Below, piece by piece: positions 4,501 to 20,000 of a stretch of 20,000 bases of DNA (position 1 is the stretch's first letter; each line of letters opens with the position of its first letter). Location of the stretch: IMG/VR virus record IMGVR_UViG_3300028887_000113; one strand, given 5' to 3'. This stretch comes from an uncultured virus (IMG/VR IMGVR_UViG_3300028887_000113). Its lineage: Duplodnaviria > Heunggongvirae > Uroviricota > Caudoviricetes. Below the pieces are notes generated by a model. The model had not been told where the DNA came from. It saw only the letters and a program-made list of their open reading frames with translations, and did not search any database. A program made the position numbers and the translations under genes.

Positions 4501-6348
4501 TGTCCACATATATGGAGTCAATTCTGATTCCGGTGGATCAGTATCAGTAGACAGCCCAGCATTTACATTAAAGTCAAACGGCTGTCCATCGGTGCCCAAG
4601 ACCGTGCACTGACATATTTTCTGATCTGGAATGTAGTAACATTGCAAAAAACCGGGGTCTCCGTTATCAAATCCATAGTAATCATTGTACATACCGGCAT
4701 AAATATCAGCCAGCTGCTTTTTGATATCGGACACTTTCATAGGCTGATAGGCCATTTGCCAATCGGAATACGTAGCATTGCCCATCATACCATGCAGAAA
4801 TCCGCTCCACCACTCCTTCGGAAAATTGCTTTTAAGCTGTGTTTCGTCATATCCGGTAAAAATCCTATATGACACACCTAGATAATATGGCGGCGTAGAA
4901 TTTTTCGTCGCAACCTTACCATCGGATTCTTTAGCCACAGTTCCTAAAGCATATAAGGTTTCAAATCCCTTAGTACTAAATAGACGAATGCCTTTCGTCC
5001 ACACATTCATATTTCCGTTATCGTCGCCAATATCGGAAATACCATACGATAATTGAGGGATACCATACTCATACATCGCTTTCAAGAAATTCGTGCATGA
5101 TGCTAAGTCAAGCGCAAATACCTTTTCGGTTGCATATTTTTTCAGCTTGTATCGTTCCTGGCTTAACTTGCGCTTCAGTCCGCTAGACATAAACCGACGG
5201 ACACCACGTATGCTCATTATCTCGTTATATGTGTCAAAATACCGTTCGGTAAATTCGTCAGCAAGTTCTTCCTTCGGTGTATAAAGCTTCTTAAATACAT
5301 CGGATACTGTCGGAATTACTGCAGTCGCACCATCAGCACGTATGTTGGGTAATGGCGACGGATTGCGGTCCATACACTTGAAATAAAACGAAGACGCGGT
5401 GGTCAATTTTTGCTTATCGACATCAGACGTATACACGTCGATCATTTTGGCATTATTCTTAATCTTCGTACGTGTCCAGTCAGCATAGTACGTCTTTACG
5501 GCAATTTGCCAGTCAGACAGACCCTCGGTATCGCCAATCGGGTCGGCATATGACGAATCATAAAATACAGTTTTGATACCAAGATTATTCTCTCGTGCAT
5601 GTTCTCCAAGTACGTTTACCGCCTTAACGAAAGAATCATACCGATAAACAGCATTGGATTTTCCCTTGGTCTGCTTGTTATACCACTTAAAACCCTGATA
5701 CAAGTTTCCTCGCAACCCGACGGCAGCCAGTGCACGCGATGTCCATATGTAATTCGTCTGATGCCAGAAATTCTGGTCGACATTTGTATAGTTTGCGTCG
5801 AACGGGTTAATGTCATACTGAGGCAAGCTTGGATTCATCAATCTAAAACGCGGCGTTACTGATACGGTCAATGCCGTAACCGTAGTACCCTCGACATCCG
5901 AATCATCTACATCGCACAGCCGCATATTCGTCAATGCAACGTCATTCACTACCATCCCAACGGTCAAACTAATGTCGAGAATAATCGAACGTGATTCCGG
6001 AATTTCAAAAATACCAGATTCAGCCAAGTCATCCAACGGATAGCCAATCGCTATATAGTATGATTTCGCAACTTGGCCGCCATCGGCCAGGTCAGTAGTA
6101 GTAACATCCAGTACAACTCTATCTTCTACGCTAACGGCAGAACCATCTGACTTGTATATGCCAGTAATCAGGTACATCACGTTATTCGTCACCAGCTCAT
6201 TCATGTTGACGTCATCGATAGATCCGTCATCATTTGTTGCCAACGAACTGGGCGTAGTTTTCAAAGGAATATCACTGACATCGAGCTTGATGTCAGTTTT
6301 TATTGTCTTTTCCTTGTAATAATGTTCGAAATCAAACAGTCCAGCCAT
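1543..6348 (-). CDS. Large (~1601 aa) probable virion structural protein containing a degenerate peptidase M15 (L-Ala-D-Glu endopeptidase-like) domain
   Basis: Long ORF. Start reassigned to ATG 6348 (MAGLFDF) because GAGG lies just upstream. ETMRSKDDQELM...SWHNYGLAVKI (~3010-3120) resembles the M15C R-S-x3-Q...SxHNYGLAVD motif. Confidence 0.8.
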   Translation of the reverse strand: MAGLFDFEHYYKEKTIKTDIKLDVSDIPLKTTPSSLATNDDGSIDDVNMNELVTNNVMYLITGIYKSDGSAVSVEDRVVLDVTTTDLADGGQVAKSYYIAIGYPLDDLAESGIFEIPESRSIILDISLTVGMVVNDVALTNMRLCDVDDSDVEGTTVTALTVSVTPRFRLMNPSLPQYDINPFDANYTNVDQNFWHQTNYIWTSRALAAVGLRGNLYQGFKWYNKQTKGKSNAVYRYDSFVKAVNVLGEHARENNLGIKTVFYDSSYADPIGDTEGLSDWQIAVKTYYADWTRTKIKNNAKMIDVYTSDVDKQKLTTASSFYFKCMDRNPSPLPNIRADGATAVIPTVSDVFKKLYTPKEELADEFTERYFDTYNEIMSIRGVRRFMSSGLKRKLSQERYKLKKYATEKVFALDLASCTNFLKAMYEYGIPQLSYGISDIGDDNGNMNVWTKGIRLFSTKGFETLYALGTVAKESDGKVATKNSTPPYYLGVSYRIFTGYDETQLKSNFPKEWWSGFLHGMMGNATYSDWQMAYQPMKVSDIKKQLADIYAGMYNDYYGFDNGDPGFLQCYYIPDQKICQCTVLGTDGQPFDFNVNAGLSTDTDPPESELTPYMWTPDIMDYLITNDNHQCTYLGSVSQFIDICITMIRGLYNRIGNDVNNVSYDNQPYYFNIGSSDHIDNMCQYVTTGSYSDDDELPVVCWDTSSTATDLLDEHKFEPSYETIDDIGEATTYTVNDCVKFALNTMDDAIDEIDNILTVQGLHFGLTFLLLQKLRLRDAKRAYEKLKDTIDRIKWYQIYTNESVFTNKTFIGTRPSYGFADTPYNFMPARFLLPVQMYKRVKVRYKRWGRTRHKMVKRSIGVRWCEITFVDNDVYEAYPPNSSEPMQYYPIGKDANVSTSSSSTVCTFDYPIEGDSANLIGVGKVTQFTNGTLLLISDDGLEVDVTINNASKFTANTVIDGIGRSVYVVGIYVPLENTEKSDERTKIRLEYNMPYIPYDSEIRRWAFMNYGAFDQDKYASDTREMPSDPDTKVPGWVIFKNSSKRIGDMRASMGIYDAVAILMGILRNTYGASMVELVETMRSKDDQELMSSGGGESTFLSWHNYGLAVKILISGKATGMPIEDGSPEFMQLIDIADGFTTACLNGVFGKPLNVVWCGRLKIGANIFVWEFLPIGVNHKDAMKFREATLNQEDPVASLGYVNVDANKLVYNTRPQGKLPYVLRNSAAYKNALLINGQHYVSPRNIRNYTVPHDIVLRNVLEFCNLIRTKMQANGSSLNNRDNIYEWKALNDKSYKQLLIYYGLTGSLTAARALVSGEYVETYKDIVDRKYTEDMVEMVKDYLGNLYQDAKIFVEESADGGAWLSLSDGKLHLKTTDIRPTFDQNSKDDFYGEKLAPVECTERGLYIDGVFRTEDELVQMGYPIETVSEHSFIDGFNNGKVIGDDALLLHTLVATQIKEEFDALKDLFENYGGGIMYDHFVDGPNASMADMVENEFGLIAGQDLIGFDELRAIFRQKSIEDNAGKFSDGSTQGAGGVGSSGSMSGDIFEKVVSNAELAGVRKASLTKEHITVTVQPSNMSTEELYKVIMKGAMTQANDMFKK

Positions 6349-6354
6349 GAAAAT

Positions 6355-6395
6355 GCCTCGGTTACGCACCTAGTTTATCAGTTTGCAACCGAGGC
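6355..6395 (-). promoter_or_regulatory. RBS-sequestering hairpin with a TGATAAACT candidate late promoter in its loop
   Basis: Perfect 9-bp inverted repeat GCCTCGGTT (6355-6363) / AACCGAGGC (6387-6395). The mRNA 3' arm contains the GAGG RBS of the 6348 gene. The motif at 6372-6380 is 24 nt from the ATG. Confidence 0.7.
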
Positions 6396-6401
6396 TAATT
6401 C

Positions 6402-8660
6402 CTAGGCAGTCTCTTTTTCCCACATCGGCTTGATCGGTCCCAACATCGAGTACAGACCGTTGTTGGTCACTGCCTGGTGGAAATCGAACTTGTCAGACAC
6501 CACCTTGCCACGGTGAGTAATGATAACGGCACAACCGATATCGGCAAGCATCAGCTTGGCGAGGTCGAGCATGTCCCTCATGGAGTTGTCGTCGGTAGAA
6601 ATGTCGAGCACTTCGTCAAGAGACAAGAAGTTGACATTGAAGTTACCGACCAGCGACACGAAGTCACGGAACGCCATCGATATAGCGAATCCAAGCTTGC
6701 GCTTCTGGCCTTGTGACAACATCGTGTAGGACGGCGACAGACCCGGAAGAGTCTTGAACGTATAGTCCATAGAATCGCTGAACGTCACCACGAACGGCAA
6801 GTGAGCCTTGGCAATGTTGCGCTGCACGGCCTTGTTAAACGCCGGGACGAACATACTGAATACCATCTTCTTCATACCGTCGTCGGCGCAGACCTTCGTG
6901 ATGGTATTGCAGACGGCGATAGTGTCACTCGCCTCATGCATATGCTTTTCGGCTTCGGCTAGTAAAGCTTGATTCTTCTTGATCTTGGATTCCATAACGG
7001 CTATTGAGTCGTCGGTAGAATTCTCGGCACGCTCGATGTTGTCCTTGAGAGTATCAAGCTGTTCCTTCATCTGAGACAACTGTCCATTCAAGTCGCTCTG
7101 TACAGCAACGATATCGCTGAACTGTCTGTTCAACTCATCATATTCAGTACGGATAGCTGGGAATGCCAGCTTTTCTTTCTTAAGCTCATCGAGGCGGATC
7201 GTCAACGAATCGACATCGACGCCAGAAAGTTCACGTTCCAGTCGGCTGACTTCGTTCTTTGCCGTAATCATTTCAGTATAGGCCGGAGTCTTTTTCTCAT
7301 CCAGATACTTCTGGTAGTCTTGGATTTTCGGTTCCATACCCTCAATAGCGGCTAGTACGTCAGCTTTGTCAGAATCAATGCGACTGAGTTCCTTTTCCAA
7401 CGGAGTAAGTTCAGCCTTCAATGCCTTGACTTGGTCATTGAGTGCCGACCACTGTACACGCAATTCGGCCTTGTGGCGTTCAACATCAGACTCGTCAGAA
7501 ATATGTCCGCAAGTCGGACACGGCGTTCCAACCTTAAACGACTTAGCAGTCTCGGTAAGCTGATCACGCTGTTCGGTACGCATACGGATCTCGTTTTCCT
7601 TAATGCCATACTCTCGGTCGACCTTGGCACGTTCTGCTGGTAGCTCTGCCAACTTTTCTTGAGCTTGCTTATACGCTTCGGTAAGATTCGTCATGATACC
7701 TTCGTATCGCTCATTCTCTTCTATTAACTGATTGTAGTCAGTCTCGGCATCAGCATAGCGTGCCTTTGCATCATGGAGCTGCGGAATCTTGGCGGACTGC
7801 CGGTTAATCTTGTCAATCTCCAGATCGATCTCGCACTCTTTCGCCAACTGGGCACGCTTCTCAAGAATCTTCGACTTGATTTCTGTCTTGTCATTCTCGT
7901 GACCGTCATAATCAAATTTTAATACCTTGTACTTGTTATCAAGCGCCTTATAGTCGGCCTTCATCTGGTCAAGATTTTCTGCACGCTCGGCAAGCATCTG
8001 CTCATGAATCTTCTGGAGTTCGGCAACTTCATCACCAAGCTGAGTCATGTCTGACTGGGCAACATTGAACGAAATCGTCGCTTCGGACAGACGCTTATGG
8101 TTTGCCTTCTTCCAAGTATCGAGCGACAGCGAAATTATTGACTCCAGCAATTCACGCTTCTTCGCAGCAGGGAGCATAAAGAACGGAAGCGTTTCCTGGG
8201 TGTTCATGGCTATTACGTTCTTGAACAGCACCTCGTTGAACTGGAGAACCTTTTCCTCAAAGTCTTGCTGGCTGAACCCGGCACGCTTGTTCTGCGCTAC
8301 CCATTCCTCGCCTATTAACTTTTCAATAGTGAACTTGACCGTAGACGTCTTGCCAGAAATACTCCTCATGATACGCCACGATTCGTGACCGTCTTGGGGA
8401 TTTTCCGTATCGAACGTCAACTGAACGACTGTCGGTTCACCGGCACTTGCGTTCTTCGTGTTACGGAGTTCTTCCTTCTTGCCGCCACGGTAAGAAACGC
8501 CTAGTAAGGCGAAAGTCATCGCCTCGACAATGGCGGACTTGCCGAAGCCGTTGTCGCCACTGAGCCATGTCAAGCCGTCACGGAACTCGAAGACGTTCTT
8601 CGTGTTACCGTACGACATGAAATTACGGAACTGGAGTTCCTTGAAAATAATCTTATGCAT
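6402..8660 (-). CDS. T4 gp46-like / SbcC / Rad50 recombination ATPase (SMC-like)
   Basis: N-terminal FRNFMSYGN, Walker A GDNGFGKS, long coiled coils with central zinc hook CPTC, signature LSQGQ, Walker B LSLDEVLD, H-loop IITH. Confidence 0.93.
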   Translation of the reverse strand: MHKIIFKELQFRNFMSYGNTKNVFEFRDGLTWLSGDNGFGKSAIVEAMTFALLGVSYRGGKKEELRNTKNASAGEPTVVQLTFDTENPQDGHESWRIMRSISGKTSTVKFTIEKLIGEEWVAQNKRAGFSQQDFEEKVLQFNEVLFKNVIAMNTQETLPFFMLPAAKKRELLESIISLSLDTWKKANHKRLSEATISFNVAQSDMTQLGDEVAELQKIHEQMLAERAENLDQMKADYKALDNKYKVLKFDYDGHENDKTEIKSKILEKRAQLAKECEIDLEIDKINRQSAKIPQLHDAKARYADAETDYNQLIEENERYEGIMTNLTEAYKQAQEKLAELPAERAKVDREYGIKENEIRMRTEQRDQLTETAKSFKVGTPCPTCGHISDESDVERHKAELRVQWSALNDQVKALKAELTPLEKELSRIDSDKADVLAAIEGMEPKIQDYQKYLDEKKTPAYTEMITAKNEVSRLERELSGVDVDSLTIRLDELKKEKLAFPAIRTEYDELNRQFSDIVAVQSDLNGQLSQMKEQLDTLKDNIERAENSTDDSIAVMESKIKKNQALLAEAEKHMHEASDTIAVCNTITKVCADDGMKKMVFSMFVPAFNKAVQRNIAKAHLPFVVTFSDSMDYTFKTLPGLSPSYTMLSQGQKRKLGFAISMAFRDFVSLVGNFNVNFLSLDEVLDISTDDNSMRDMLDLAKLMLADIGCAVIITHRGKVVSDKFDFHQAVTNNGLYSMLGPIKPMWEKETA

Positions 8661-10290
8661 CTAAATTACCAAATGCGGAAAGGTCAGTATTGTTAAGAAG
8701 ATTGGTTTCACCAAGGTCGAGTTCGACGTCGTCTTCATTCTTTTCTGGTTCGGACGAAGCTTCACCAATCTTGACGACTGGATCTACACAATGAGTATCT
8801 TGGTATACCTTGATTTCGCCATTCAACAAAGGATCGGCTTCGGCAGCCTTCTTAGCGGCTTCCTTGTTAGCCTTCTTCTTTTCACGAGCCTTCTTGGCTT
8901 GTTCACGACGCTTTGCCTTACGGTCTTCAGCTTCCTTATCGAACTTCTGGGCATCTTCCTGGGAGATCGGAGTAGCATTGACCGTTTCGTCGAACTGCTT
9001 TGTCAATTCGGCAATATCGGAAGATTCGACGACGGCCTTGGCTTGTTCTTGGTCAACCTTGATTTCGACGGCATTTTCGGTAGCCTTCTGGGCAAGGTAT
9101 TCCTTGATATTCAGAACAGCAAGGCACTTACGGAGCTTACCGAGCGCCGGAATGCTGATCTTGAGTTCGGTGCAAATCATCGCATCGGTACGACCGCCTT
9201 CTGCATCCAGTTCAGCAAGCTTCTTGTAGACCGGAGTAGACTCGATGATCATGGCGCATTCACGCTTGTACACTCGTTCGATGACAGCACGGTGTTCCGG
9301 AGTATCCTCATAACCGTTCTTGGCAGCAAAGTCAACCAAGTGTTCCACTGGATAGCCATAAAGGATGAATGTATCGATCTTGCCAAGCGGAACTGGTAAT
9401 TCGAGTTCTGCAGCTTCTTCTGGAGAAATCTCACGCTTCGGCAGCTGCGGCTGTTCCACAAGGGCTTCGTTCTTGGCGAACAGTTCCTCGGTAGCCTCGT
9501 TGACAGGAATCTGCAGCAAGGCCGCACGTTCGATCAACATGTTGTTGTCACGGACGGTATAGCCAACCGGCTTGGTTCCCGGCTGCATACCCATTTCGAA
9601 GCCAGACTTCAGACCGTACTTGTAGCCACGAATCGGATAGGCGTCCGGATTGTACTGGCTGGACACAAGATACTTGCCAAGATAGTCATTGGTAAGCGTA
9701 CTGCCCTTGGAATCACGCCAGTGCGGAGTATTCGGTGTAAGAGGGCCACTCATCGGCATGCAAGCGTTATTCGGCACGGAGAAGAAAGTCAAAGTGTAGT
9801 TCGGCGTGTGGGAACACGGATGAACGAGACCTTGCGGATTCGGACGAGTGTGCTGGAAGCAGTCGATCAGAGTTCCGACACGGTTCTTCATAGCCTTCTC
9901 GGAAGACAGATACTTCACGAAAACGGACATAGCCATGGCCTTGTTGACCATGTACTTGTTGATGAACTCGCTGATTGACTTTGTGAAATTCAAGTCGATC
10001 CAGACAAATTCGTCATCTTCCAGACAAACTGTCCAAGTCGGTTCCGTAGACTGTGCCACGTAGGACTTGATGATGTTGCTTTTCTTGCGCCAGTCATTAC
10101 CAGCCATCGGAACGAGCGTCACGTGTTCTTCACGCTTTCGGCAAGCCTCCGGAAGCCAGCCGTGGCTACCAGAATCATAGACATATATTCGATCGAATCC
10201 GAGTGCGATATGGAAATCGAGCCATTCATTGAAATCAAGTTCATTGTTCGTTGACACACGAACCAAAGCATTTACGGGTATATTCGCCAT
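8653..10290 (-). CDS. GT-A glycosyltransferase-like protein (GT2/GT92-like N-terminus) with putative C-terminal HTH and charged tail
   Basis: EWLDFHIALGFDRIYVYDSGS and WTVCLEDDEFVW match the GT92/GT2-like EW..YH...G.D...IYDN.S and W...lD.DEF motifs. GAGG RBS upstream. Stop overlaps the gp46-like start by 8 nt. Confidence 0.7.
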   Translation of the reverse strand: MANIPVNALVRVSTNNELDFNEWLDFHIALGFDRIYVYDSGSHGWLPEACRKREEHVTLVPMAGNDWRKKSNIIKSYVAQSTEPTWTVCLEDDEFVWIDLNFTKSISEFINKYMVNKAMAMSVFVKYLSSEKAMKNRVGTLIDCFQHTRPNPQGLVHPCSHTPNYTLTFFSVPNNACMPMSGPLTPNTPHWRDSKGSTLTNDYLGKYLVSSQYNPDAYPIRGYKYGLKSGFEMGMQPGTKPVGYTVRDNNMLIERAALLQIPVNEATEELFAKNEALVEQPQLPKREISPEEAAELELPVPLGKIDTFILYGYPVEHLVDFAAKNGYEDTPEHRAVIERVYKRECAMIIESTPVYKKLAELDAEGGRTDAMICTELKISIPALGKLRKCLAVLNIKEYLAQKATENAVEIKVDQEQAKAVVESSDIAELTKQFDETVNATPISQEDAQKFDKEAEDRKAKRREQAKKAREKKKANKEAAKKAAEADPLLNGEIKVYQDTHCVDPVVKIGEASSEPEKNEDDVELDLGETNLLNNTDLSAFGNLDA

Positions 10291-10310: not shown

Positions 10311-10339
10311 AATATAGTATTAAAGAGCATTAAAGTCAA
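10311..10339 (-). promoter_or_regulatory. sigma70-like promoter TTGACT-N17-TATATT for the GT/gp46 genes
   Basis: -35 at 10339-10334 and -10 at 10316-10311 with exact 17-nt spacing, overlapping the 3' end of the RNase H gene. Confidence 0.6.
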
Positions 10340-11675
10340 ATGACGGGCCACCGAAGGCTCCATCGATGTCTTCGAAGTCGAGACCACTTGCCATTTCGTC
10401 CATTAGCTTCTTGTTCATGTCAGTTTCCTTCTGTACAAGTTGTTCACCCTTGAAGGATTCTGGGTTGGCGTTCTCACGAGCGATTACGGAGAAGAATCCG
10501 AACTGCTGCAGCGTACGGTAATAGTCCACCTTGCTTTCCGGTATGCCCCATTCATTTGTCTTCGTCCAGTCGATAGTCAACTCTGGTGCCGGACGTTCCA
10601 TGATCTCGTCAATCTTCTCGGAGACATTTCGAGGAACCATCGACAAGTCAATCAGCGTACGGTTACGCATATACTGTTCAGCCCAGCCGTTAGCCTCGGC
10701 AACCGCATAGATGTTCGGACAGTTTTCCATCAGCATCACGGCTTCCTTTTCGGAAACTGCGTTAGCCTTGGTAGGCTTGTACTCGCCAGTCTTCGCATCC
10801 ACATAGGCCATGCCACGGATATTATCGGACGTATCGCCAGACAGAACCTTGGCGGACAAGTATGCTTGCGGATAGGCGCACTCGACAAAGTTTTCTTGAG
10901 TATGGTTGAAAATCTTCACGTTCTTGACATCGATCTGCGACATATCAGAGTCACGAGTAATCACGATGACATCGTCGTAGTCACCGCTATACTTCTTGAC
11001 GGCGGCATAAATCATGTCGTCACCTTCGGCAATATCGCACTTGACGGCCTTTGCACGGAGGAACGGAGCCAGTTCCATGGCGTATTCGTCCTTGTAGGAT
11101 TGCCAATACTTCTTGTCTACGGAGAATTCCCACGCGGACGCGCCTCGCTTTCCCTTGTAGGAAGGCAGCACCGGAGTTCCGGTAGGTGTCTTGACACCCC
11201 ACAGCATGTACTGGGTATCTTCGGGAAGCTCACCAAGCTTCTTGTGGCTCAATGACTCAAACAACGACCGCTGCTTGGGCGGAATCTTCACCACTCCATA
11301 TCCGTCACCAGCCTTCGTGACACGGTAGGCATAGTTGTCGCTGCAGACATAGTAACCGGTCGTATCCCAATAAATTGTAGCGTGCTTGGCGTAGTAATCC
11401 TTGACTACTTGCTTGCGCCACGCATTCTTTCCTTCCAAACACAGAATAATGTCCATCGGGTTGAAAAGACGGATATAGTCCAACATACGGTTGAACATCT
11501 TGGAACGCCAGACAATCATTTCGTCGTCTTCCGGCAACATGCTACCCAGCTGCTTCTTGCTGGACTTGGTCTTCATCGACCAAAGCTGATGATATGAAAG
11601 GGACGCCCAGTCGATAACGAGAAGGCGCTTGTCCTTGAACGGATAACTCTTGAGAGGTTTAGACTTGAATTCCAT
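10320..11675 (-). CDS. rnh: T4 RNase H-like 5'-3' exonuclease / flap endonuclease
   Basis: FEN/5'-nuclease acidic motifs LLVIDWAS, CLEGKNAWRK, SYKGKR, EGDDMI, TRDSDMSQ, LSGDTSDNIRG and RNRTLIDL; AGGA RBS. Confidence 0.88.
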   Translation of the reverse strand: MEFKSKPLKSYPFKDKRLLVIDWASLSYHQLWSMKTKSSKKQLGSMLPEDDEMIVWRSKMFNRMLDYIRLFNPMDIILCLEGKNAWRKQVVKDYYAKHATIYWDTTGYYVCSDNYAYRVTKAGDGYGVVKIPPKQRSLFESLSHKKLGELPEDTQYMLWGVKTPTGTPVLPSYKGKRGASAWEFSVDKKYWQSYKDEYAMELAPFLRAKAVKCDIAEGDDMIYAAVKKYSGDYDDVIVITRDSDMSQIDVKNVKIFNHTQENFVECAYPQAYLSAKVLSGDTSDNIRGMAYVDAKTGEYKPTKANAVSEKEAVMLMENCPNIYAVAEANGWAEQYMRNRTLIDLSMVPRNVSEKIDEIMERPAPELTIDWTKTNEWGIPESKVDYYRTLQQFGFFSVIARENANPESFKGEQLVQKETDMNKKLMDEMASGLDFEDIDGAFGGPSFDFNAL

Positions 11676-12171: not shown

Positions 12172-13944
12172 TTATAGGAAAAACTTATTCTTGAATACTT
12201 TAACTTTATTAGCGACCTTCTCGGCCTTCGCCTTCGCCTTGTCGGCAGCCTTCCGCTTTCGCTCGGCTATTACGGCCTCGTCGATCTTTGCTTCGTAAAT
12301 TCCAGTGAAGTTGATTTCCTCGACGGGAATCTCGTCATCGTCATAATACGATCGACGAATATCATAGTGCTTTACCATGTAATTGGTCTTCACCACCGGA
12401 TAGCCAGAGCGACCGATATACTCGTATGACGCATCGTCCACCAGGTCATACACGTAGGCCATTTTCTTGTCCTTATGCGGACGAACGATACGACCGATAG
12501 ACTGAACGACCATGTACACGGACTTTGCTGGGTTGGCAAATATTAAGTTATGCAGCAGCTTGATGTTCACACCTTGCTTCATGCATCCGTACGTGGCCAG
12601 AATAATATGGCCAGTAGAATACTCAATAGACTTACGGATATCCTCTCGATCGTCTACTGACACGTCACCCTTGATGACATGATAGGTGAACTGTGGATAC
12701 TGTTCCCTAAGGAACTCGTGCATCATTTCAAGCGGATCGATGTTCTTGAACAGTATTACAGTATTCTGCTCGGTAGTAATCTTCTTCGAATCTATTAAAA
12801 TCTTGATGATATCCTGGCGAGACGTATTCGAGCTGCAGAATGCGACCTCGTCGTCATACGTCTGGCGACACAACATCTTCCTCTGGGATGGCGGATACGG
12901 TATTAAGATCGAACGGACAGTAACTGGCGTAAGAATACCCTTTGCAACCAGTTCCTTCAAGCGAACGATATCTTCCTTACGACCGAGCTGGCTCTCGATA
13001 TAGCCAGCGTCGATACCGTCGTTCGGCAACGTACCGGACACGCCGATCTTGAAGTCAATCGCATTGACACACTTCGCCAGAATGTCACGGAGCTTGACGC
13101 CTCTCGTAGAGTGCGCCTCATCCACCATGACAGCGGTGAAACACTCGAAGAAGGAATCCGACTTATGCTGCAACGACTGCCATGTCGATATGGTAATCTG
13201 TTTCAACGTGGCTTCCTCGCCTACATTGGCCGCCTTCAAACGCTCTATCTGCTTCTTTGTCAGCTTGTCGTCAGAATCCGAATATATTAAGGTACAATAG
13301 TTCTTGGCATCTTCCCAACCATAATCGTTATAGAAATCGGAGAACAGCTGTTCCACCAAGTTAGTCGACGGAACGACTATTAAGAGTTTCTTGTTTTCAC
13401 GAGATATTAAGTACCGCGCAATGATGCACATCGCCAGAGACTTTCCAGCGCTCGTACACGCCAGTAATGAAATTCGGCGACCGTTTATGGCTCGCTCGGC
13501 CAACTTGTACTGATGTTCATAAGGAATAATCTTGTCACCAGTAACCCGGTTATGCAAGTTCAGAGTATTAGCGAACCCGACAATATCATCCCTAGTCAAC
13601 TTCCCACGAGGCGGAATAAATAGGTCATTAATGTCCTTTGTCAGCTCGATCTTCGTACCGAAACGGCCTTGAACAAGACGGCTGACCCTCGGTATTAAGC
13701 CAATAGGCAACAGCTGCTCCTTACGGTCGTAGAAAGTCACGAACGCACTCTTGAAACCTTCGGACACTTGCCATGTCTTCGACTTGGTCTTATCGTAGAA
13801 CGTCATCGCAGCCGAGATAAAGCTGTTAATCATGTAGGCAAGTCTCTTATCCTCGGACTCGATGACCACATGACTCTGGATAGGGTCATAATACTCGAAA
13901 CGTACAAGCGAAGGTGCAAATTTAGCTGGTTGCTGTTGCATCAT
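12172..13944 (-). CDS. uvsW: UvsW-like SF2 DNA/RNA-DNA helicase
   Basis: Q motif PYEHQ, motif I ACTSAGKS, Ia VPSTNLVEQLFSDF, STWQSL, II DEAH, III SGT, VI QSIGRIVR and VYDLVDD, as in T4 UvsW. Start placed at the TAATG overlap with the upstream stop (13944). Confidence 0.9.
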   Translation of the reverse strand: MMQQQPAKFAPSLVRFEYYDPIQSHVVIESEDKRLAYMINSFISAAMTFYDKTKSKTWQVSEGFKSAFVTFYDRKEQLLPIGLIPRVSRLVQGRFGTKIELTKDINDLFIPPRGKLTRDDIVGFANTLNLHNRVTGDKIIPYEHQYKLAERAINGRRISLLACTSAGKSLAMCIIARYLISRENKKLLIVVPSTNLVEQLFSDFYNDYGWEDAKNYCTLIYSDSDDKLTKKQIERLKAANVGEEATLKQITISTWQSLQHKSDSFFECFTAVMVDEAHSTRGVKLRDILAKCVNAIDFKIGVSGTLPNDGIDAGYIESQLGRKEDIVRLKELVAKGILTPVTVRSILIPYPPSQRKMLCRQTYDDEVAFCSSNTSRQDIIKILIDSKKITTEQNTVILFKNIDPLEMMHEFLREQYPQFTYHVIKGDVSVDDREDIRKSIEYSTGHIILATYGCMKQGVNIKLLHNLIFANPAKSVYMVVQSIGRIVRPHKDKKMAYVYDLVDDASYEYIGRSGYPVVKTNYMVKHYDIRRSYYDDDEIPVEEINFTGIYEAKIDEAVIAERKRKAADKAKAKAEKVANKVKVFKNKFFL

Positions 13945-14447
13945 TACATTCTCTCGTAGCAGCACATCTTATAGATCGAATCGGACTCCAAGCCGTCCTT
14001 CGGTGCCGGGAAGTACGACGGAATCAAGTAGACGCCGTCCACCTTGTCCTCTGACGTACCGTCCAGTGCGACAATGAATCTATACTTGTAGCCGAAATTC
14101 ACTCGGAAGTCGGTCGGATAGAACATGTTCGACTGTGCCTTGCTCCGAATGACGGCTCCCTTACGTAGGGACTCTCCGAAAATCTGGATAATCTTGGCAT
14201 CCTTCTTGCAACGCTTGATGACTGCGTCGACTAAACGTTCCGTAAGATCTTCGTCTACCAAGTCGTTATGGAGTTCAATGCTGCCCAAGGACAAGTCCAA
14301 GTCCCAACGATTCCCAGAACAGACCTCGTGGGCTTTCAGTTTCAACGTGGCATCCGGTGTCAGCAAGGATACCGGTGACTGCCATCCACTGTTCTCCCAG
14401 CGGAACAAAGACAGCAATTCGATTGTTAAACAAGAAGTGTAATCCAT
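13944..14447 (-). CDS. Hypothetical protein (~167 aa)
   Basis: ATG 14447 (MDYTSC) follows AGGA and a promoter. Translationally coupled to uvsW. The longer ORF-track start (14525) runs into the repeat region. Confidence 0.7.
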   Translation of the reverse strand: MDYTSCLTIELLSLFRWENSGWQSPVSLLTPDATLKLKAHEVCSGNRWDLDLSLGSIELHNDLVDEDLTERLVDAVIKRCKKDAKIIQIFGESLRKGAVIRSKAQSNMFYPTDFRVNFGYKYRFIVALDGTSEDKVDGVYLIPSYFPAPKDGLESDSIYKMCCYERM

Positions 14448-14455
14448 AATCCTAC

Positions 14456-14484
14456 AAGATAGCCATAAACAATTTGAATTGCAA
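14456..14484 (-). promoter_or_regulatory. Leftward sigma70-like promoter TTGCAA-N17-TATCTT
   Basis: -35 at 14484-14479 and -10 at 14461-14456; forms the left arm of an inverted repeat. Confidence 0.65.
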
Positions 14485-14833
14485 ATTAGTTCAGAATGGC
14501 CTAAAAGTGTCATTTTCCGAAACATTATATGGTGGCCCTAGTGGCTCTCTCGCTGTGGGACTCTTTCAGACTTTTTTACTTACCTTGGGAGACTGTCCTG
14601 ACTACACAGACATAGCTGACCTATAGGATAAATGTCATTTTCCGAAACATTATATGGTGGCCTTAGGGCCTCACTGACTGTGGGACTCTTCGGACTTTTT
14701 AACTCACCAAGTTAAGGATGGAATATTATGTAAACTAGACTATATACTCATTGTCCTAGGATTATCGAAACATTATATGGTCAGTTACCTCCGGTAACAC
14801 CGTTACTCGTTCAATTTGCAATTCAAACTGTTT
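14467..14833. repeat. 21-bp inverted repeat (20/21 identity) bracketing a direct-repeat array
   Basis: AAACAATTTGAATTGCAAATT (14467-14487) versus AATTTGCAATTCAAACTGTTT (14813-14833). Confidence 0.9.
14508..14781. repeat. Three iteron-like direct repeats, period 125/123 bp; candidate replication origin
   Basis: The 16-bp core CGAAACATTATATGGT occurs at 14518, 14643 and 14766. Copies 1 and 2 share a 30-bp identical block (TGTCATTTTCCGAAACATTATATGGTGGCC at 14508 and 14633) and ~75 bp of similarity including CTGTGGGACTCTT..GACTTTTT. The origin role is inference. Confidence 0.85.
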
Positions 14834-14844
14834 TAGACTACCTT
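14816..14844 (+). promoter_or_regulatory. Rightward sigma70-like promoter TTGCAA-N17-TACCTT
   Basis: -35 at 14816-14821 and -10 at 14839-14844; mirror copy of the leftward promoter. Confidence 0.6.
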
Positions 14845-14883
14845 TGGACTTCGGTAAATACGACTTGATAAACTCGGCGATAA

Positions 14884-14949
14884 GACAGGACTGGCAGTGG
14901 CAGACCTACCTTAAGCTAGAGCCTGGAGTGGATACTTGCCGGACTTGTT
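14884..14949 (+). ncRNA. Structured RNA (leader or small ncRNA) upstream of the polymerase-fold gene
   Basis: GACAGGACUGGCAGU (14884-14898) pairs with ACUUGCCGGACUUGUU (14934-14949), including three G-U pairs that favour the plus-strand RNA. It is followed by U-rich sequence. Confidence 0.4.
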
Positions 14950-14968
14950 GGTTTTAATTAGTTTTGTA

Positions 14969-16576
14969 ATGAAAATGACAGAAACCCTTAACCAGACCGT
15001 AACGAAGCGCAGAAAGCGGAAACCGCTGAAGGAATTCAAGATAGAGTTGCCTTCCATGCTATGTAATGATTTCGTTACATTCTGTCATAATTTTATGACA
15101 ACTAATGGCGATACGAATTCCACCAAGGCGTTGCTGGATACTATGGCACTGGTACTGTACATGGTCACCAACCAGCTCCGTAGTGACTTGATGACCAATA
15201 TGATCGTACAGCCAACTATTCCAAGAAAGTACTGGAAGTGCCATCTCTCTGCCGTCTTGCTGCGTAAGATACTTGGTGACGGATACATCACCGCAATCAA
15301 TTCCTTAGTAGAGCATGGCTTTATTGGAAGGTCTCATAGCTATATCAAGGGCGATTCGAACACTAAGGGCAAGTGCAAGGCGTTCTGGCTGTGTGCACCG
15401 TACCAGAACAGCTATGCGACTTATCTGCAGACTTGGATTGACAAGAAGTTCATGAATACCGAGGTGGTAGTTCATGGTAAGATGTCCAAGTATACCATAA
15501 CATCCCCGGTTGTTCTGAGACGTATCAAGAGGTCTTTCGAGGAACGTAAGCGGATTTCGATGGACGATCCACTGGTAGCCGTATGCTACGACGAGCTGAG
15601 TCACTTTTCGATAGATACAAAGGTGGCGGATGCTACATTGGATGAGATGGTATCGTCCGGAAAGATGACACCGTACAATGCCAAGATGGAACGTAACAAG
15701 GTGGAACGTTTCAACGGACTGATGGACGACGACGGTGCAATGTACGTGAAACACGACAAGTACGGACGTATCCATACCAACGTGACGAACCTGAAGAAGG
15801 AAATCCGTCATTCCGCGTTGCGCTGTGATGGGGAACCCGTTGCCGAGGTGGACATCAAGTCATCCCAGGCGGCCTTTATCATCGCGGTATTCCGTCGGTA
15901 TATCGATTTTTATAAGGACGACCTGGAAGAGAACCGCGACACGTTCATAAGGTTCCGTCCCATATGGAATGAGGGCCGAAAGGAGATTACCCTTGACCGT
16001 ATGGAGAAAGAGCTGGAACGGTACCGTAACCTGGTGGCCGACGGCCAGATATACGAATTTTTCCAGAAGGAATGCAGCGAGGACTTTGACGTAGACCGTG
16101 AATTGTCGCGTGACGAGGCTAAGAAGGGACTGCTGTCGTTCTTGTTCTCGCCGTTGTATTTCGATGACCGAAGAGAGGTTGTGCGAGGAGCCGTACAGAG
16201 ATGCTGGAGAGAGCATTTCCCTACGCTGTTCAACTGCATGTGGTCAATGAAGGAGCATTGCCATGCGGCCTTGGCCTATGAGATGCAGAAGATCGAGAGC
16301 AGCTTCGTTTTCGAGCAAGTGTGTCCTCGTATCATGGAAGAAGTAGGCTGCCACTTCTGTACGGTGCATGACTCCATCATCGTGCCGGAGAAGTATGCCG
16401 ATCACGTCCGTTGCATCATGGACGAGGAATTGCTCAACCAGAATATCCCAACACACACTGATATCGAATACGAATACGAGATCGAGGCCGCATTGCCAGA
16501 ACGTCCAGACCAGTGTTTCATTGATGAGATGGATCGCAGAAACTGCGATCCGGTCAACTATGAGTCTGATGCCTGA
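14969..16576 (+). CDS. Winged-helix + family-A polymerase palm protein; putative replication initiator / primase-polymerase
   Basis: DKYGRIHT (DxxGR, 15755), motif A VDIKSSQ (15851), motif B RDEAKKGLLSFLF (16109) and motif C TVHDSII (16364). N-terminal HLSAVLLRKILG..YITAINSLVEHGFI..SHSY..G..CKAFWL resembles a wHTH. No exonuclease domain seen. An alternative TTG start at 14936 has GGAG upstream. Confidence 0.7.
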   Translation: MKMTETLNQTVTKRRKRKPLKEFKIELPSMLCNDFVTFCHNFMTTNGDTNSTKALLDTMALVLYMVTNQLRSDLMTNMIVQPTIPRKYWKCHLSAVLLRKILGDGYITAINSLVEHGFIGRSHSYIKGDSNTKGKCKAFWLCAPYQNSYATYLQTWIDKKFMNTEVVVHGKMSKYTITSPVVLRRIKRSFEERKRISMDDPLVAVCYDELSHFSIDTKVADATLDEMVSSGKMTPYNAKMERNKVERFNGLMDDDGAMYVKHDKYGRIHTNVTNLKKEIRHSALRCDGEPVAEVDIKSSQAAFIIAVFRRYIDFYKDDLEENRDTFIRFRPIWNEGRKEITLDRMEKELERYRNLVADGQIYEFFQKECSEDFDVDRELSRDEAKKGLLSFLFSPLYFDDRREVVRGAVQRCWREHFPTLFNCMWSMKEHCHAALAYEMQKIESSFVFEQVCPRIMEEVGCHFCTVHDSIIVPEKYADHVRCIMDEELLNQNIPTHTDIEYEYEIEAALPERPDQCFIDEMDRRNCDPVNYESDA

Positions 16577-16617: not shown

Positions 16618-17112
16618 ATGTCTCAATATATTCGTACTTTCGTTATTCCGGATGATAAAGATGTCGTCGCCGAGCAGAATGGTCAATACTTATTGAAGGA
16701 CAATCTCGTTGCAGAAGTGGTCATACTCAATTCAGATGTCGATGACTACACGGATGAAATGACAAGTATGGATTTCACTAGTGTGCGTAGCCGTATTACC
16801 GTGCATAAGGGGTTTGCTGCTGAACATCCGTTGCCGACGTTCGCCGTGTTGATTTTGAATTTGCTTGGTATCCGTATCGATCCCCGGTTCACTATCTTGC
16901 TGGCGGCGTTGTACGAGGAGACTGGGTTCAACGAGTACAGCCGTGAGGAATGTGACAAGTTGTTCCTCAATACAGTACTGGAGCCGATACACAACCAGCT
17001 ATTGCACTTCATCGTGTATGAACTGCTGCTGATTGTTGTCGGCAATAATTATGCTTGGAATAACAATTCCGACCAGATTACCGTGGCTACGCTTGAACCG
17101 ATCTGGAACTAG
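16618..17112 (+). CDS. DUF1353-like protein, apparently lacking the conserved HD motif
   Basis: ITVHKGF, ALYE, SREECDKLF and G..YAW follow the DUF1353 pattern (I.VP.GF.TD...HD.LY...R.eAD.iF...G..aw); AGGT RBS. Confidence 0.5.
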   Translation: MSQYIRTFVIPDDKDVVAEQNGQYLLKDNLVAEVVILNSDVDDYTDEMTSMDFTSVRSRITVHKGFAAEHPLPTFAVLILNLLGIRIDPRFTILLAALYEETGFNEYSREECDKLFLNTVLEPIHNQLLHFIVYELLLIVVGNNYAWNNNSDQITVATLEPIWN

Positions 17113-18083
17113 GTTGTCGGGTATAGCGGCTTGGGTTCCTCGATGACGAGTTCTTCGTCTTGATCGGATTCTTCTTCGTCCACGGGGACGTCGAACATTG
17201 GCAGTGAGGCTTCCTCGTCGTAATCAATGAACGGCGAGGAATTCTTTTCTGCGTCGTACTTACCGATCATCGGATTCGGATCTTCCGGGACTTCCTCGGT
17301 CTCTTCGTCGGTCTGTTCGATATGGTCTGCTAGGGCATCGAGAGCTTCTTGAGTTTCCGGAGTCTTGATACCTTGGCTGTCACCGCCGAACAGTTCCATC
17401 GCCTCGTTACGAGCCTTCTCGTGCTCTTCGGAAGATTGGTCGAATATGGCGTTGGCTTCCTTTTCGGAATCGTTCTTGCCGATCGGCTGATTTTCCGGCA
17501 TTTCTTCTGGAGCGACTGGTTCGTTTTCTTCCACTGGCGGAGCCGTACGGACTTGCTTCATGATGCTACCGGCGTTCGTGAGGATACCGCCCAGTGCAGC
17601 CACGAGGTGGGCGCACAATGCTGGCTTCCTTACCTTCGGTGCGATATCTTCGCCGTGGTCGTCCTTGGCGTCGTCAGAATGATGGTTGGCAGATAGACTG
17701 TCGTACTTGTGCTTCATCATGAATTTCATTCCGTTCCAGTTGAAGTCCGGACACGAGCAGTAGCAACGCACGTCGGCATCCTTGAGCATGTTGATACGGT
17801 CAGCCAGTTTCTTGGTAGTCTGTGCCAGAGTGAACAGGTTGGCGTTCTTGGGGATGATGTCGATAAAGCAATGACGGACTGTGCCGGGATCACTGCGAGA
17901 AGGAACCTCGAATTCGATAACTGCATTACCGTCTGGCGCACGAGAAACGCCTACGAAATGTCTTTCCATTTTGCGACCTTGTTCAAATCGCTTGCCGTCG
18001 GTCTTCTTGGCAAAGAAGGCCGCATTGGATTCAATGAGGTTCTTTCCGGTGGAAAGGCAGTTCAGCAGTACGTTCTTGTCCAT
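17109..18083 (-). CDS. SWIM-type Zn-finger phage protein with long acidic C-terminal tail
   Basis: FEVPSRS...DVRCYCSCPDF...LCAHLVAAL (CxC...CxH); the C-terminal ~140 aa are E/D/P-rich. Confidence 0.7.
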   Translation of the reverse strand: MDKNVLLNCLSTGKNLIESNAAFFAKKTDGKRFEQGRKMERHFVGVSRAPDGNAVIEFEVPSRSDPGTVRHCFIDIIPKNANLFTLAQTTKKLADRINMLKDADVRCYCSCPDFNWNGMKFMMKHKYDSLSANHHSDDAKDDHGEDIAPKVRKPALCAHLVAALGGILTNAGSIMKQVRTAPPVEENEPVAPEEMPENQPIGKNDSEKEANAIFDQSSEEHEKARNEAMELFGGDSQGIKTPETQEALDALADHIEQTDEETEEVPEDPNPMIGKYDAEKNSSPFIDYDEEASLPMFDVPVDEEESDQDEELVIEEPKPLYPTT

Positions 18084-18086
18084 AGA

Positions 18087-19595
18087 TTAACCGGCTTCGA
18101 ACACGGACTGGATCAGTTCCTTGTCCATGAAGTATGCGTCCTTGTTCTTGGCATCGATTGACTTGATGCAGGTTTTTCCGTTAACCTCGGTGTCGTCGCA
18201 CACGCGGAGACGTTCCTTGGACGGCTTCGTCCTCGGCTTGAGGATGTAGAACGGCGGGACGCCGTCGTTGGCCTCGATGTACTTCTGGAGCACCATGTCG
18301 TTGACGTTTCTGTTGGACGACTTGATTTCCTCGAGTGCGTCCTTTCCGAGTCTACCGGCGAGCTTCTTTCTGTCGTCGTCGCTCATGTAGCGAGCGTAGT
18401 TGTGCAGACCGGTCGGGCCGCTCGGCACGAGGATGGTGTAGAACTGCTTGAGGTAGAGTGCAGGGAGTTCGATCTCCTTGCCATATACCTTCTGTGCATC
18501 CTCTCCCTTGTCGTGGTTGAGCCAGAAGTCGGAGAGTAGTCCCTCGAAGACCGGGTCGTAGTCAAAGCGGTCGACTGCCTCGGTTTCTGGTGCTTCTTCT
18601 GGTGCCTCGAAGTCGTGGCTGCTGGGTTCTTCCTTGGCGATTGCGTTAAGCGAGACTACTTTTACTTTATCGGCTTCGGACTTTCCGACAAGTGCTTCGC
18701 TGTCGACCTTTAGCGGTTTGCGCAGCATGGGGATGCCTTCAGCAGAAGCAGCCTTCTTGATGAGCTTGTACATCTCGGAGCGCTTGAGGCCGCCAGTCGT
18801 ATGGGTGAGCGAGAAGCTGAAGATGATATGCTTGATAAGCGCCTTTCCGGCGGGTGAGCCGTTGATTCGGTCCATAAGCGCGACAAGGAGCTTCTTGAGC
18901 TGCTTGGGGTTGGACTGGGGATCGGTCTGGACGATCTGTCGGATGAGCTCGCTGTTGAAGTTGATTGCCGGATAGCCGAAGTCCATTGACATGACTTGGT
19001 CGCCAAGTTCGATAGGAGCTTGGTTATAACCTTCCGGGATTACTATGCTTCCGACTTTCTTTCCATTACGGTCTTTCAGAGTATCACGGAGATCGTCATT
19101 GACCTGGCGAGGAACATCGACACCGCATGCGTTAGCGATTGTCGGGATGATCTTGCTTTGGATGATGGCACGGTCGGTACCCTTCTTGGCACGCTCGTTG
19201 ATATAGTTTGTCCACTTTTCCTTGGACTGGCCAGCGCCGTTGAGAATCTTATTTAGCATGGCGGCGACCTTCTCGCCGTCTTCGGGTGCGTTACGGAAAC
19301 GCTGTCTAATACATGCTGCGATCTCCTTGTATTGGATTGCCAGCGTGTCAAGTTCGGTTTCTTTGGCCTTGTCCTTCTCTTCCGGGGTCTGTACGTCCTT
19401 TTCTTCGTTCTTGGACGTTTGAACTTCTGGTTCGTCATTTTGTTTGACTTCTTCACTACTTGCGGCTACTTCAGCACTGTCACCTTGTTGTGCGTTTTTA
19501 TCTTTTTGGTTAACTTCTTGCTGAACCTTTGGTTGTTTAGCAATTACAGCTTTTTCGTTATTACCTGGTATGATATTCTGATCGTCAATAGGCAT
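18087..19595 (-). CDS. Hypothetical protein (502 aa), probable late gene
   Basis: Long ORF with GAGGTGA RBS, TGATAAACT motif 28 nt upstream and a low-complexity charged N-terminus. Confidence 0.8.
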   Translation of the reverse strand: MPIDDQNIIPGNNEKAVIAKQPKVQQEVNQKDKNAQQGDSAEVAASSEEVKQNDEPEVQTSKNEEKDVQTPEEKDKAKETELDTLAIQYKEIAACIRQRFRNAPEDGEKVAAMLNKILNGAGQSKEKWTNYINERAKKGTDRAIIQSKIIPTIANACGVDVPRQVNDDLRDTLKDRNGKKVGSIVIPEGYNQAPIELGDQVMSMDFGYPAINFNSELIRQIVQTDPQSNPKQLKKLLVALMDRINGSPAGKALIKHIIFSFSLTHTTGGLKRSEMYKLIKKAASAEGIPMLRKPLKVDSEALVGKSEADKVKVVSLNAIAKEEPSSHDFEAPEEAPETEAVDRFDYDPVFEGLLSDFWLNHDKGEDAQKVYGKEIELPALYLKQFYTILVPSGPTGLHNYARYMSDDDRKKLAGRLGKDALEEIKSSNRNVNDMVLQKYIEANDGVPPFYILKPRTKPSKERLRVCDDTEVNGKTCIKSIDAKNKDAYFMDKELIQSVFEAG

Positions 19596-19622
19596 TAGTC
19601 ACCTCTAAATTGCAACGTCTGT

Positions 19623-19631
19623 AGTTTATCA
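19623..19631 (-). promoter_or_regulatory. TGATAAACT motif, candidate phage late promoter
   Basis: 28 nt upstream of ATG 19595, directly after a terminator U-tract. Confidence 0.6.
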
Positions 19632-19662
19632 CAAAAATAAAGTCCGCTATCGCTAGCGGACT
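19632..19662 (-). terminator. Rho-independent terminator
   Basis: Stem AGTCCGCTA (19641-19649) / TAGCGGACT (19654-19662) with a 4-nt loop, followed on the minus strand by TTATTTTTG. Confidence 0.8.
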
Positions 19663-19665
19663 GAA

Positions 19666-19681
19666 TGTTTCACGTGAAACA
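19666..19681. promoter_or_regulatory. parS: parS site (ParB/Spo0J binding palindrome)
   Basis: TGTTTCACGTGAAACA is a perfect match to the bacterial chromosomal parS consensus; the palindrome extends to 20 bp (19664-19683). Confidence 0.8.
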
Positions 19682-19692
19682 TTTTTAGAAAA

Positions 19693-20000
19693 TCGCGCCG
19701 AGAAACATGCCACCCAGCGCCGCTAGGCGCTGGGGAACCCTTTAGGGTGGCATATGATAGGCGCGAAACTTGAAAAATAAATTGTAATTTTCTATATAAA
19801 CTTCTAAAGAATAGAACTTTGAACCATGCTTCAGCGTGCCTACAACGTCAGACTGTATCCTAACAAGCAACAGGAAGTCTTGCTCAGCAAGACTTTCGGC
19901 TGCTGCCGTAAGGTATACAACTGCATGTTGGAAGCCAAGATAAAATCGTACGAGGCGACCGGCACAGCGTGCCGGTCGAACCCCACAGATTTCTATGCCG
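19693..20000 (+). mobile_element. IS200/IS605-family element (tnpB-only, IS1341-like), left part
   Basis: Subterminal hairpins at 19693-19766 (TCGCGCC/GGCGCGA, ATGCCACCC/GGGTGGCAT with CCCTTTAGGG), promoter TTGAAA-N17-TATATA (19770-19798), then tnpB. No tnpA upstream. The exact left boundary is uncertain. Confidence 0.7.
19826..20000 (+). CDS. tnpB: TnpB RNA-guided endonuclease, N-terminal part (truncated by the window edge)
   Basis: MLQRAYNVRLYPNKQQEVLLSKTFGCCRKVYNCMLEAK matches the IS605 OrfB N-terminal HTH signature (AYK.RLYP...Q...l..tfGc.R.vYN). Confidence 0.9.
   Translation, partial: MLQRAYNVRLYPNKQQEVLLSKTFGCCRKVYNCMLEAKIKSYEATGTACRSNPTDFYA

Follow-up and report, generated by a model that had tools for sequence, protein, structure and literature searches.

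The single-subunit RNA polymerases of bacteriophage T7 and of mitochondria prime replication at their own promoters, and the Rep protein of ColE2 binds its origin and primes. The TV-Pol proteins were predicted in 2008 to be primase-polymerases (Iyer, Abhiman and Aravind, PMC2579912). The R-loop origins of phage T4 combine a MotA-dependent promoter with an unwinding element and form a persistent R-loop (PMC3016281), and about 30% of huge phage genomes show a base skew typical of bidirectional replication (PMC7162821). In the literature searched, mostly outside subscription journals, no initiator was named for the bidirectional replication of huge phages and no winged-helix family-A polymerase with cognate origin boxes was described, though supplements may bear on the latter point. 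Here we analyze 20,000 nt of DNA from an uncultured virus (IMG/VR record IMGVR_UViG_3300028887_000113), referred to as the window, which is part of a T4-like rumen jumbo phage with a genome of roughly 430 kb. The subject is a non-coding region, 14448-14968, and the gene that follows it, which encodes a polymerase-like protein of 535 amino acids (aa). We assign a probability of about 0.5 to the reading that this region is the main origin of the phage and that the adjacent protein is its dedicated starter, binding short boxes in the region and priming the first strand. In our view the locus is a clearly marked candidate origin and the adjacent protein a candidate initiator-primase to match it, a TV-Pol-type variant limited to one phage clade.

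Boxes and base skew at the locus

The non-coding region contains three identical 16-nt cores at intervals of 125 and 123 bp, as a preliminary description of this DNA had claimed, and the longest word occurring three times in 1000 shuffles of the region was 9 nt. Similarity around copies 1 and 2 extends to 61 nt at 89%, while that of copy 3 covers only about 17-25 nt. In a near-identical strain from another sample the contigs match the window letter for letter, except that 14508-14632 is skipped, which reflects either a strain with two boxes or the collapse of a 30-nt repeat.

The upstream regions of 160 loci, 5 annotated-record loci and the window were surveyed for boxes. Ninety-two loci passed a profile score of at least 450 with more than 450 nt of upstream sequence, and these were reduced to 42 at 92% identity. 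A weight matrix missed boxes with a 4-nt spacer, those of the window included, and a flexible pattern derived from these loci, [GT]AAACAY-N4-6-YRG, was then used. It is found upstream of the gene in 33 of the 42 relatives, which carry 1-3 boxes, with two or more in 25 loci. Sixty-two boxes lie on the strand of the gene and one on the opposite strand, with about 2 expected from shuffles. The 29 spacings between boxes span 82-822 bp without a common helical phase, and the inner A/T spacer is 5 nt in 57 sites and 4 nt in 5, both lengths occurring within single genomes. Box types differ between clades (CGAAACAT, CGTAAACAT and GAGAACAT), the clades being taken from a quick tree. The nine pattern-negative loci are all on long branches of this tree: a single AAAAA(G)TGAGAACATATAGTG is present in six, two others each carry a variant of their own in two copies, and the last shows nothing clear. 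Of the eight with clade-specific variants, seven fall in one long-branch clade and one stands alone on a long branch. A box remains directly upstream of the polymerase gene down to 33% protein identity, while the other neighbours change.

Genome-scale tests of skew, box uniqueness and the replisome were carried out on the records of relatives rather than on the window's own genome. Five of these are related rumen records (G001-G005), and G007, W01, W02 and G013 (260 kb) are distant ones. The upstream boxes are the two best weight-matrix matches in the whole record in G001-G004. The DNA that follows a second or third box has more G than C in 25 of 29 cases, the DNA that precedes it in 7 of 29. 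Orientation in one direction, free spacing, an A/T middle of flexible length, a variable number of copies and uniqueness agree better with redundant start sites than with cooperative iterons, and by these features the box resembles a polymerase start site more than an iteron. The regular array and the iteron-type behaviour that had been proposed for the repeats were not upheld, since the spacing in relatives is free, unphased and incidental. That the 125-bp units form a CRISPR-like or RNA array was rejected because of the free spacing and because beyond about 75 nt units 1 and 2 are no more alike than random sequence. A genome-wide promoter was rejected as well, the top-scoring boxes in G001-G004 being found only at this locus. 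In two loci (L005 and L100) one box lies about 1000 nt and the other about 180 nt ahead of the gene, about 820 bp from each other, and an insert between them suggests recombination at the boxes.

Base skew points to the same place. The cumulative G-C minimum of the window is at 14842, inside the right of two inverted promoter-like arms that flank the boxes. The whole-record minimum lies <2 kb from the gene in four of the five rumen relatives, being inside the gene in G002 and G004, 102 bp off in G001 and 1751 bp off in G005. Among 27 dereplicated close loci with 5-kb flanks, the skew switches from negative to positive across the gene in 23, compared with 46 of 302 control slices, and a local minimum falls between -1.2 and +2 kb from the gene start in 19, compared with 22 of the 302 controls. 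In all five rumen records genes of either strand show a rise of the four-fold-site skew across the locus, which argues for replication and not for coding bias alone. We consider it quite likely that a replication origin is situated at this locus.

Several observations weigh against this reading. The raw skew minimum of G003 is 25 kb from the gene, although its gene-orientation minimum is at the gene, and loci of the single-box clade have their local minimum 3-5 kb past the start of the gene. A strand-corrected two-break fit falls on the gene only in G004 and G005; in G001 and G002 it misses by about 25 kb, and in G003 it does no better than shuffles. No G enrichment follows the first boxes (17 of 33), and box variants that track the tree are expected from kinship alone. 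It could be argued from the imprecise fit in three of five records, from the flip of gene orientation near the locus and from the unstable look of the three-copy box state that no origin is present, the skew switch reflecting divergent transcription and the boxes being regulatory sites amplified by local duplication. We regard this as very improbable. The four-fold-site skew shifts in genes of both strands, and in the closest relatives the skew becomes positive although most genes that immediately follow the polymerase gene are encoded on the minus strand. A parS-type site (see below) is also conserved nearby in 11 of the 42 loci.

The 535-aa protein and its proposed role

The preliminary description had recognized a winged-helix-like N-terminal segment and a polymerase palm in the ~535-aa product, and structure prediction agrees with it. 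The model is confident (predicted local distance difference test, pLDDT, 86.6) and contains an N-domain and a polymerase core only. Residues about 194-504 match the family-A fold of Klenow with Z 14.5 and a root-mean-square deviation of 3.7 over 254 aligned residues; the single-subunit RNA polymerase fold scores Z 12.9 (mitochondrial), 10.4 (T7) and 9.0 (N4 RNAP II). Thumb helices at 217-229 and 235-249 are followed in the model by strands at 260-262 and 268-270. Folded alone, the N-domain reaches pLDDT 91 and has a beta wing, and its top structure matches are mostly winged-helix proteins (Fur, ORC, TFIIE, Cdc6 and LexA; Z 5-6.3). A Foldseek search with this domain gave nothing under E 0.001, and no named plasmid Rep was prominent among the winged-helix matches, 4pta ('MDR initiator') at Z 5.3 being tied with many. 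The matches agree in class, but at Z values of 5-6 no individual one is convincing, and this weighs against the starter reading proposed below.

By sequence the protein is hardly annotated. Pfam had no match for it, PHROGs only the unnamed phrog_4756, the PDB nothing by sequence or by profile, and the ESM Atlas only unnamed clusters. The wider family (about 400 aa) comprises 8321 cluster representatives at E <=0.001 and is without a Pfam model. A tblastn search matched no cultured phage, and only 6 uncultured huge-phage records.

Conservation was counted over 228 aligned polymerase sequences. R267, D295, K385 and E443 are invariant, and Q300, Q440, H467 and D468 are each present in 227. D263 is found in 225, S469 in 214 and R381 in 194; position 393 is occupied by F in 207 sequences and by Y in the other 21. 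Y362 is invariant, and no aspartate is conserved at 355-365. Since the catalytic residues are near-invariant, the enzyme is very likely active. Its motifs are mixed: DxxGR and HDS are T7 RNA polymerase-like, Q440 is Pol I-like, Q stands at the Pol I steric gate and F/Y at the position of T7 Y639, with G542 and Y639 of T7 used as reference positions. For the family-A core the reference positions are E710 and F762 (PMC7581432). With this mixture of features, a preference for RNA or DNA sugars cannot be read from the residues.

PolB and a DnaB-like helicase are encoded in all five related records. Among 34 of 44 listed open reading frames (ORFs) in two regions, a primase was found in G002, and a single-strand-binding protein, a clamp loader and UvsX in G001 and G002; a search with the PF13155 primase family gave a weak match in one of the five records. 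Since the relatives have a PolB and helicase of their own, the 535-aa protein is, judged by gene content, not the replicase, and neither is it the routine lagging-strand primase.

We propose the following course for a dedicated starter. Host RNA polymerase would fire two outward early promoters, leaving the DNA between them underwound and the gene expressed. The winged-helix head would read CG[T]AAACAT, the fixed part of the box, and the A/T stretch that follows, 4-5 nt long, would open. The family-A core would then start a chain at or near the next GG, which in the three boxes of the window stands at 14531, 14656 and 14779, giving a short primer or R-loop of RNA or DNA, and the product would run rightwards on the strand that is G-rich from there, the future rightward leading strand. 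Phage PolB, clamp, DnaB-like helicase and a gp61-like primase would take over to form two forks, and RNase H and UvsW would process or shut off the hybrid by analogy with T4 (PMC3016281). A precedent is CcPol, a TV-Pol member capable of de novo priming together with a partner protein (PMC10061031, PMC7581432). That the protein binds the boxes seems to us reasonably probable. That it alone serves as origin reader and as de novo primase on a double-stranded promoter-like box is a more tentative proposal; its primer might be DNA, given Q at the steric gate and F at the position of T7 Y639.

The protein could instead be a private RNA polymerase or an autoregulator on the boxes, making short RNAs or controlling its own promoters and those of the uvsW operon, while the origin fires in the T4 manner through an R-loop made by host RNA polymerase. 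The boxes face the gene and lie between its promoters, and the DxxGR and HDS motifs, like the fold scores with mitochondrial and T7 RNA polymerase, resemble those expected of such an enzyme. UvsW and RNase H genes are neighbours, and an RNA polymerase role has been suggested for divPolA2 (PMC11348598). However, the box is not spread before other genes, so that a polymerase of this kind would transcribe almost nothing, and the gene is preceded by putative sigma-70-type promoters. The model is also without a specificity-loop hairpin before motif C, and the equivalents of T7 G542 and Y639 are Q and mostly F. We think this arrangement unlikely.

The distant members of the family count against the starter reading in a wider sense. 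No shared box was found upstream of them. The whole-record skew minimum is at the gene in none of the four distant records, being off it in G007, W01, W02 and 260 kb of G013, and the detrended minimum of W01 is 15 kb away. Distant phage loci show a local sign switch in 19 of 31, but a local minimum at the gene in only 10. The fold therefore needs no adjacent origin, and a family-wide origin role was not supported; to judge from the genomes compared, the origin module is a feature of the 500-550-aa rumen clade. Two checks set in advance by the preliminary description came out in its favour for the rumen clade. Homologues keep an upstream box in the rumen clade (33 of 42 by pattern plus 8 variants) and not among distant members, and GC skew places the switch at this locus in the rumen clade and not in the distant records.

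Bacterial homologues adjoin integrases or resolvases in 7 of 13 loci (the neighbourhood covers 81 of 109 listed ORFs and 13 of 33 loci). No resolvase, integrase or transposase was present among the 11 window proteins scanned. Together with the distant phage members and with a repair role suggested for divPolA2 (PMC11348598), the bacterial loci would agree with an accessory polymerase for repair, gap filling or restart, domesticated from a TV-Pol mobile element. The boxes would then be read by another phage or host factor, and proximity to the origin would follow from the clustering of early replication genes. We consider such an enzyme improbable here. A unique site with a fixed orientation is not required for repair, the protein has a DNA-binding-type head, and the box stays upstream while neighbours change. 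Two bacterial homologues (L331 and L347) are followed by a DUF5131 gene within integrase- or resolvase-bearing elements, and in L042 and L043 a 66-bp tandem repeat, which may be coding, lies 250-600 nt upstream of a distant member.

Other elements, neighbouring genes and setting

Features of the window discussed in the text
Feature	Position	Strand	Remarks
Polymerase gene	14969..16576	+	535 aa; winged-helix-like head and minimal family-A core (TV-Pol-like), no exonuclease domain
N-terminal winged-helix-like domain	15035..15568	+	residues about 23-200
Thumb, palm, fingers	15566..16480	+	residues about 200-504; DxxGR 263-267, D295, Q300, RxxxK 381-385, F393, Q440, HDS 467-469
Box 1	14518..14533	+	CGAAACAT-TATA-TGG; starts a 125-bp unit; candidate recognition/start site of the polymerase
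Box 2	14643..14658	+	exact 16-nt core
Box 3	14766..14781	+	exact 16-nt core; copy nearest the gene
Candidate sigma-70-type promoter TTGCAA-17-TATCTT	14456..14484	-	left arm; towards 167-aa gene and uvsW operon
Candidate sigma-70-type promoter TTGCAA-17-TACCTT	14816..14844	+	right arm; towards polymerase gene
ATAAACT	14868..14874	+	most enriched intergenic word of relatives; 53-100 copies per record, about 9-13-fold between genes
Weak 6-bp hairpin	14888..14906	+	RNA stem of the preliminary description; poorly supported
Promoter-like TTGCCG-17-TAGTTT	14936..14964	+	few bases before ATG; from sequence and 11-relative alignment
Perfect parS-type palindrome	19666..19681		second intergenic gap, 19596-20000
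167-aa gene, no known family	13944..14447	-	opens leftward operon, overlaps uvsW start; kept beside locus in closest relatives
UvsW-like SF2 helicase	12172..13965	-	most constant upstream neighbour in rumen clade
T4 RNase H-like 5'-3' exonuclease	10320..11675	-	from gene scan of the window

Inverted promoters around the boxes had been predicted, and the arms at 14456-14487 and 14813-14844 are indeed outward-facing copies of TTGCAATTCAAA with TAnnnT 17 nt past the hexamer; they are putative promoters, and a generic sigma-70 scan did not list them. Sites of the class TTGCAA-17-TAnnnT number 5 in G001 and 6 in G002, 10 of these 11 being intergenic, with none in G003-G005. Elsewhere the class precedes genes on the same strand, and in 9 of the 10 closest loci an outward pair encloses the boxes. 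ATAAACT, which occurs in the window at 1535, 6378, 14868, 19629 and 19796, is probably a late-type phage promoter read by a phage sigma factor; we liken it to the T4 late promoter word TATAAATA. As the same promoter words stand before genes elsewhere, the promoters at the locus appear to be ordinary phage ones and not origin-specific. The position of TTGCCG-17-TAGTTT suggests a nearly leaderless early message.

The RNA stem that had been described downstream of the boxes was not substantiated. RNA folding of 14850-14968 is no better than that of shuffles (z -0.54), there is no Rfam match, and across 11 sequences only the 6-bp hairpin is kept, with one two-sided change. A structured RNA as the main part of the locus was likewise rejected: of seven stretches folded none reached z -2, the best being -1.7 on the minus strand.

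The region upstream of the polymerase gene had been called the only long non-coding stretch, but a second gap of at least 405 bp exists at 19596-20000. It contains the perfect parS reported about 5 kb away, which was found again with the parS consensus. A parS with at most 1 mismatch lies 4.7-7.1 kb from the gene start in 11 of the 42 close loci, many of which have flanks that are too short, and in none of 31 distant loci. In G001 and G005 it occurs once, at a distance of 3-6 kb from the gene, which favours the origin reading. Its absence from G002-G004 and G013-G017, most of which are incomplete records, is a point against a link with the origin. No phage ParB was found in the five related records, so that the user of parS would have to be a host ParB; the phages may borrow the ParB-SMC system of the host.

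The polymerase gene is divergent from the UvsW-like, RNase H-like and gp46-like genes, and the gene scan bears out the earlier statement on this point. Directly after it, at 16618-17112, lies a 164-aa gene that is kept in closer clades and has a weak Atlas lead to DUF1353 (score 0.85); by analogy with MP for CcPol, its product is a possible partner. Most rumen relatives have a SWIM-finger-like 324-aa gene and a 502-aa gene (17109-19595 in the window) as a pair close to the polymerase gene, and in some clades the pair is inverted. The 545-aa protein encoded at 8653-10290, whose gene is flanked by those for RNase H and gp46, has an N-terminal glycosyltransferase-2-like domain (PF13704) and may modify phage DNA. 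A 1608-aa protein encoded at 1543-6369 has no Pfam or PHROG match.

The nearest protein relatives of the window have 80-84% identity and lie on contigs of up to 440 kb. Its DNA words are present in bovine gut metagenomes, of which one run may be its source; two runs of one other sample share 0.94 and 0.78 of the words, and no RNA dataset was among the matches listed. Relatives at 79% were binned to a Fibrobacter genome and to a Prevotella genome, and these host assignments conflict.

Comparison with known systems

The locus offers a candidate enzyme and a defined 17-bp candidate substrate, and the 2008 prediction that TV-Pol primes replication becomes testable with one protein and one oligonucleotide. 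If our reading is correct, the protein would be the first named initiator of jumbo-phage bidirectional replication, and it would link DNA polymerase I, as a functioning intermediate form, to the T7-type RNA polymerases that start at promoters. A small, sequence-specific, self-priming polymerase could also serve as a reagent.

The protein had been thought to be of an undescribed type, which cannot be maintained in view of TV-Pol (PMC2579912) and the related divPolA2 (PMC11348598). With the TV-Pol subset that has an N-terminal globular domain it shares a minimal family-A core without nuclease, a thumb of two helices, an invariant arginine (R267) in the beta-hairpin next to the thumb, an RRM palm with two catalytic aspartates (D295 and D468) and the RxxxK of the fingers (R381 and K385). 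Homologues next to integrases or resolvases in Bacteroidota, Planctomycetota and Verrucomicrobiota are a further resemblance (PMC2579912), whereas no such enzyme is among the 11 window proteins scanned. TV-Pol is described with a conserved fingers aspartate; at 355-365 of the present protein Y362 is invariant and no aspartate is conserved. It is also described with a C-terminal D5 helicase or an all-helical N-terminal domain; the 535-aa protein has no D5 fusion, and its N-domain is modelled as winged-helix-like with a beta wing. D5 helicase and recombinase are missing here, and the gene is a fixed one of a jumbo phage with a T4-like replisome. From PMC2579912 we know of no cognate DNA box or origin for the group, whereas a candidate box is present here.

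Like the present protein, divPolA2 (Yutin et al. 2024, PMC11348598) is an exonuclease-less second polymerase beside PolB; it has about 430 aa and an N-domain of no known type. The profile match between the two has a probability of 95% (E 2e-8, 202 columns) and is confined to the polymerase domain. A protein of Rheinheimera phage Barba31A is among the top fold matches, and a profile of the 535-aa protein family finds nothing in MG592441. In divPolA2 motif A ends in E and motif C is FDE, in contrast to Q and HDS here. Its neighbourhoods are variable, and it has been proposed to act in repair or transcription (PMC11348598).

The CcPol-MP primase of SCCmec shows that a family-A domain can act as a primase (PMC7581432, PMC10061031), as is predicted here. 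CcPol depends on a separate single-strand-binding partner, is linked to a helicase and keeps the equivalents of E710 and F762, whereas the present protein carries its head as a fusion, has Q in place of E710 and is accompanied by a candidate start site on double-stranded DNA. The T4 origins oriF and oriG (R-loop) and oriE (12-nt iterons, RepEB) share with this locus a strand switch, nearby promoters, UvsW and RNase H, and direct repeats (PMC3016281). T4 relies on host RNA polymerase and MotA, has no dedicated origin polymerase and uses several origins without a common motif (PMC3016281). The present locus, in contrast, is marked by a single dominant minimum of the skew and by an oriented box that is conserved.

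Iteron plasmids also place a winged-helix-type reader, Rep, beside direct repeats on the same strand, but iterons are close and helically phased, whereas the boxes here are 82-822 bp apart and unphased. ColE2-type primases differ in their catalytic domain, which is AEP rather than family A. With the T7 and mitochondrial RNA polymerases the protein shares its fold, and the layout of the box, an A/T-rich flank, a fixed core, a meltable A/T stretch and GG, is promoter-like. DxxGR and HDS are those of T7-type enzymes (D263, R267, H467 and S469 in 225, 228, 227 and 214 of the 228 sequences). T7-type polymerases have a glycine at the steric gate and a tyrosine at the end of motif B, where Q300 and mostly F393 stand here, and a specificity-loop beta-hairpin, where the model has helices and short loops (residues 394-459). 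Their promoter is repeated before many genes, whereas the top boxes of G001-G004 are at one locus, beside a protein of about 535 aa.

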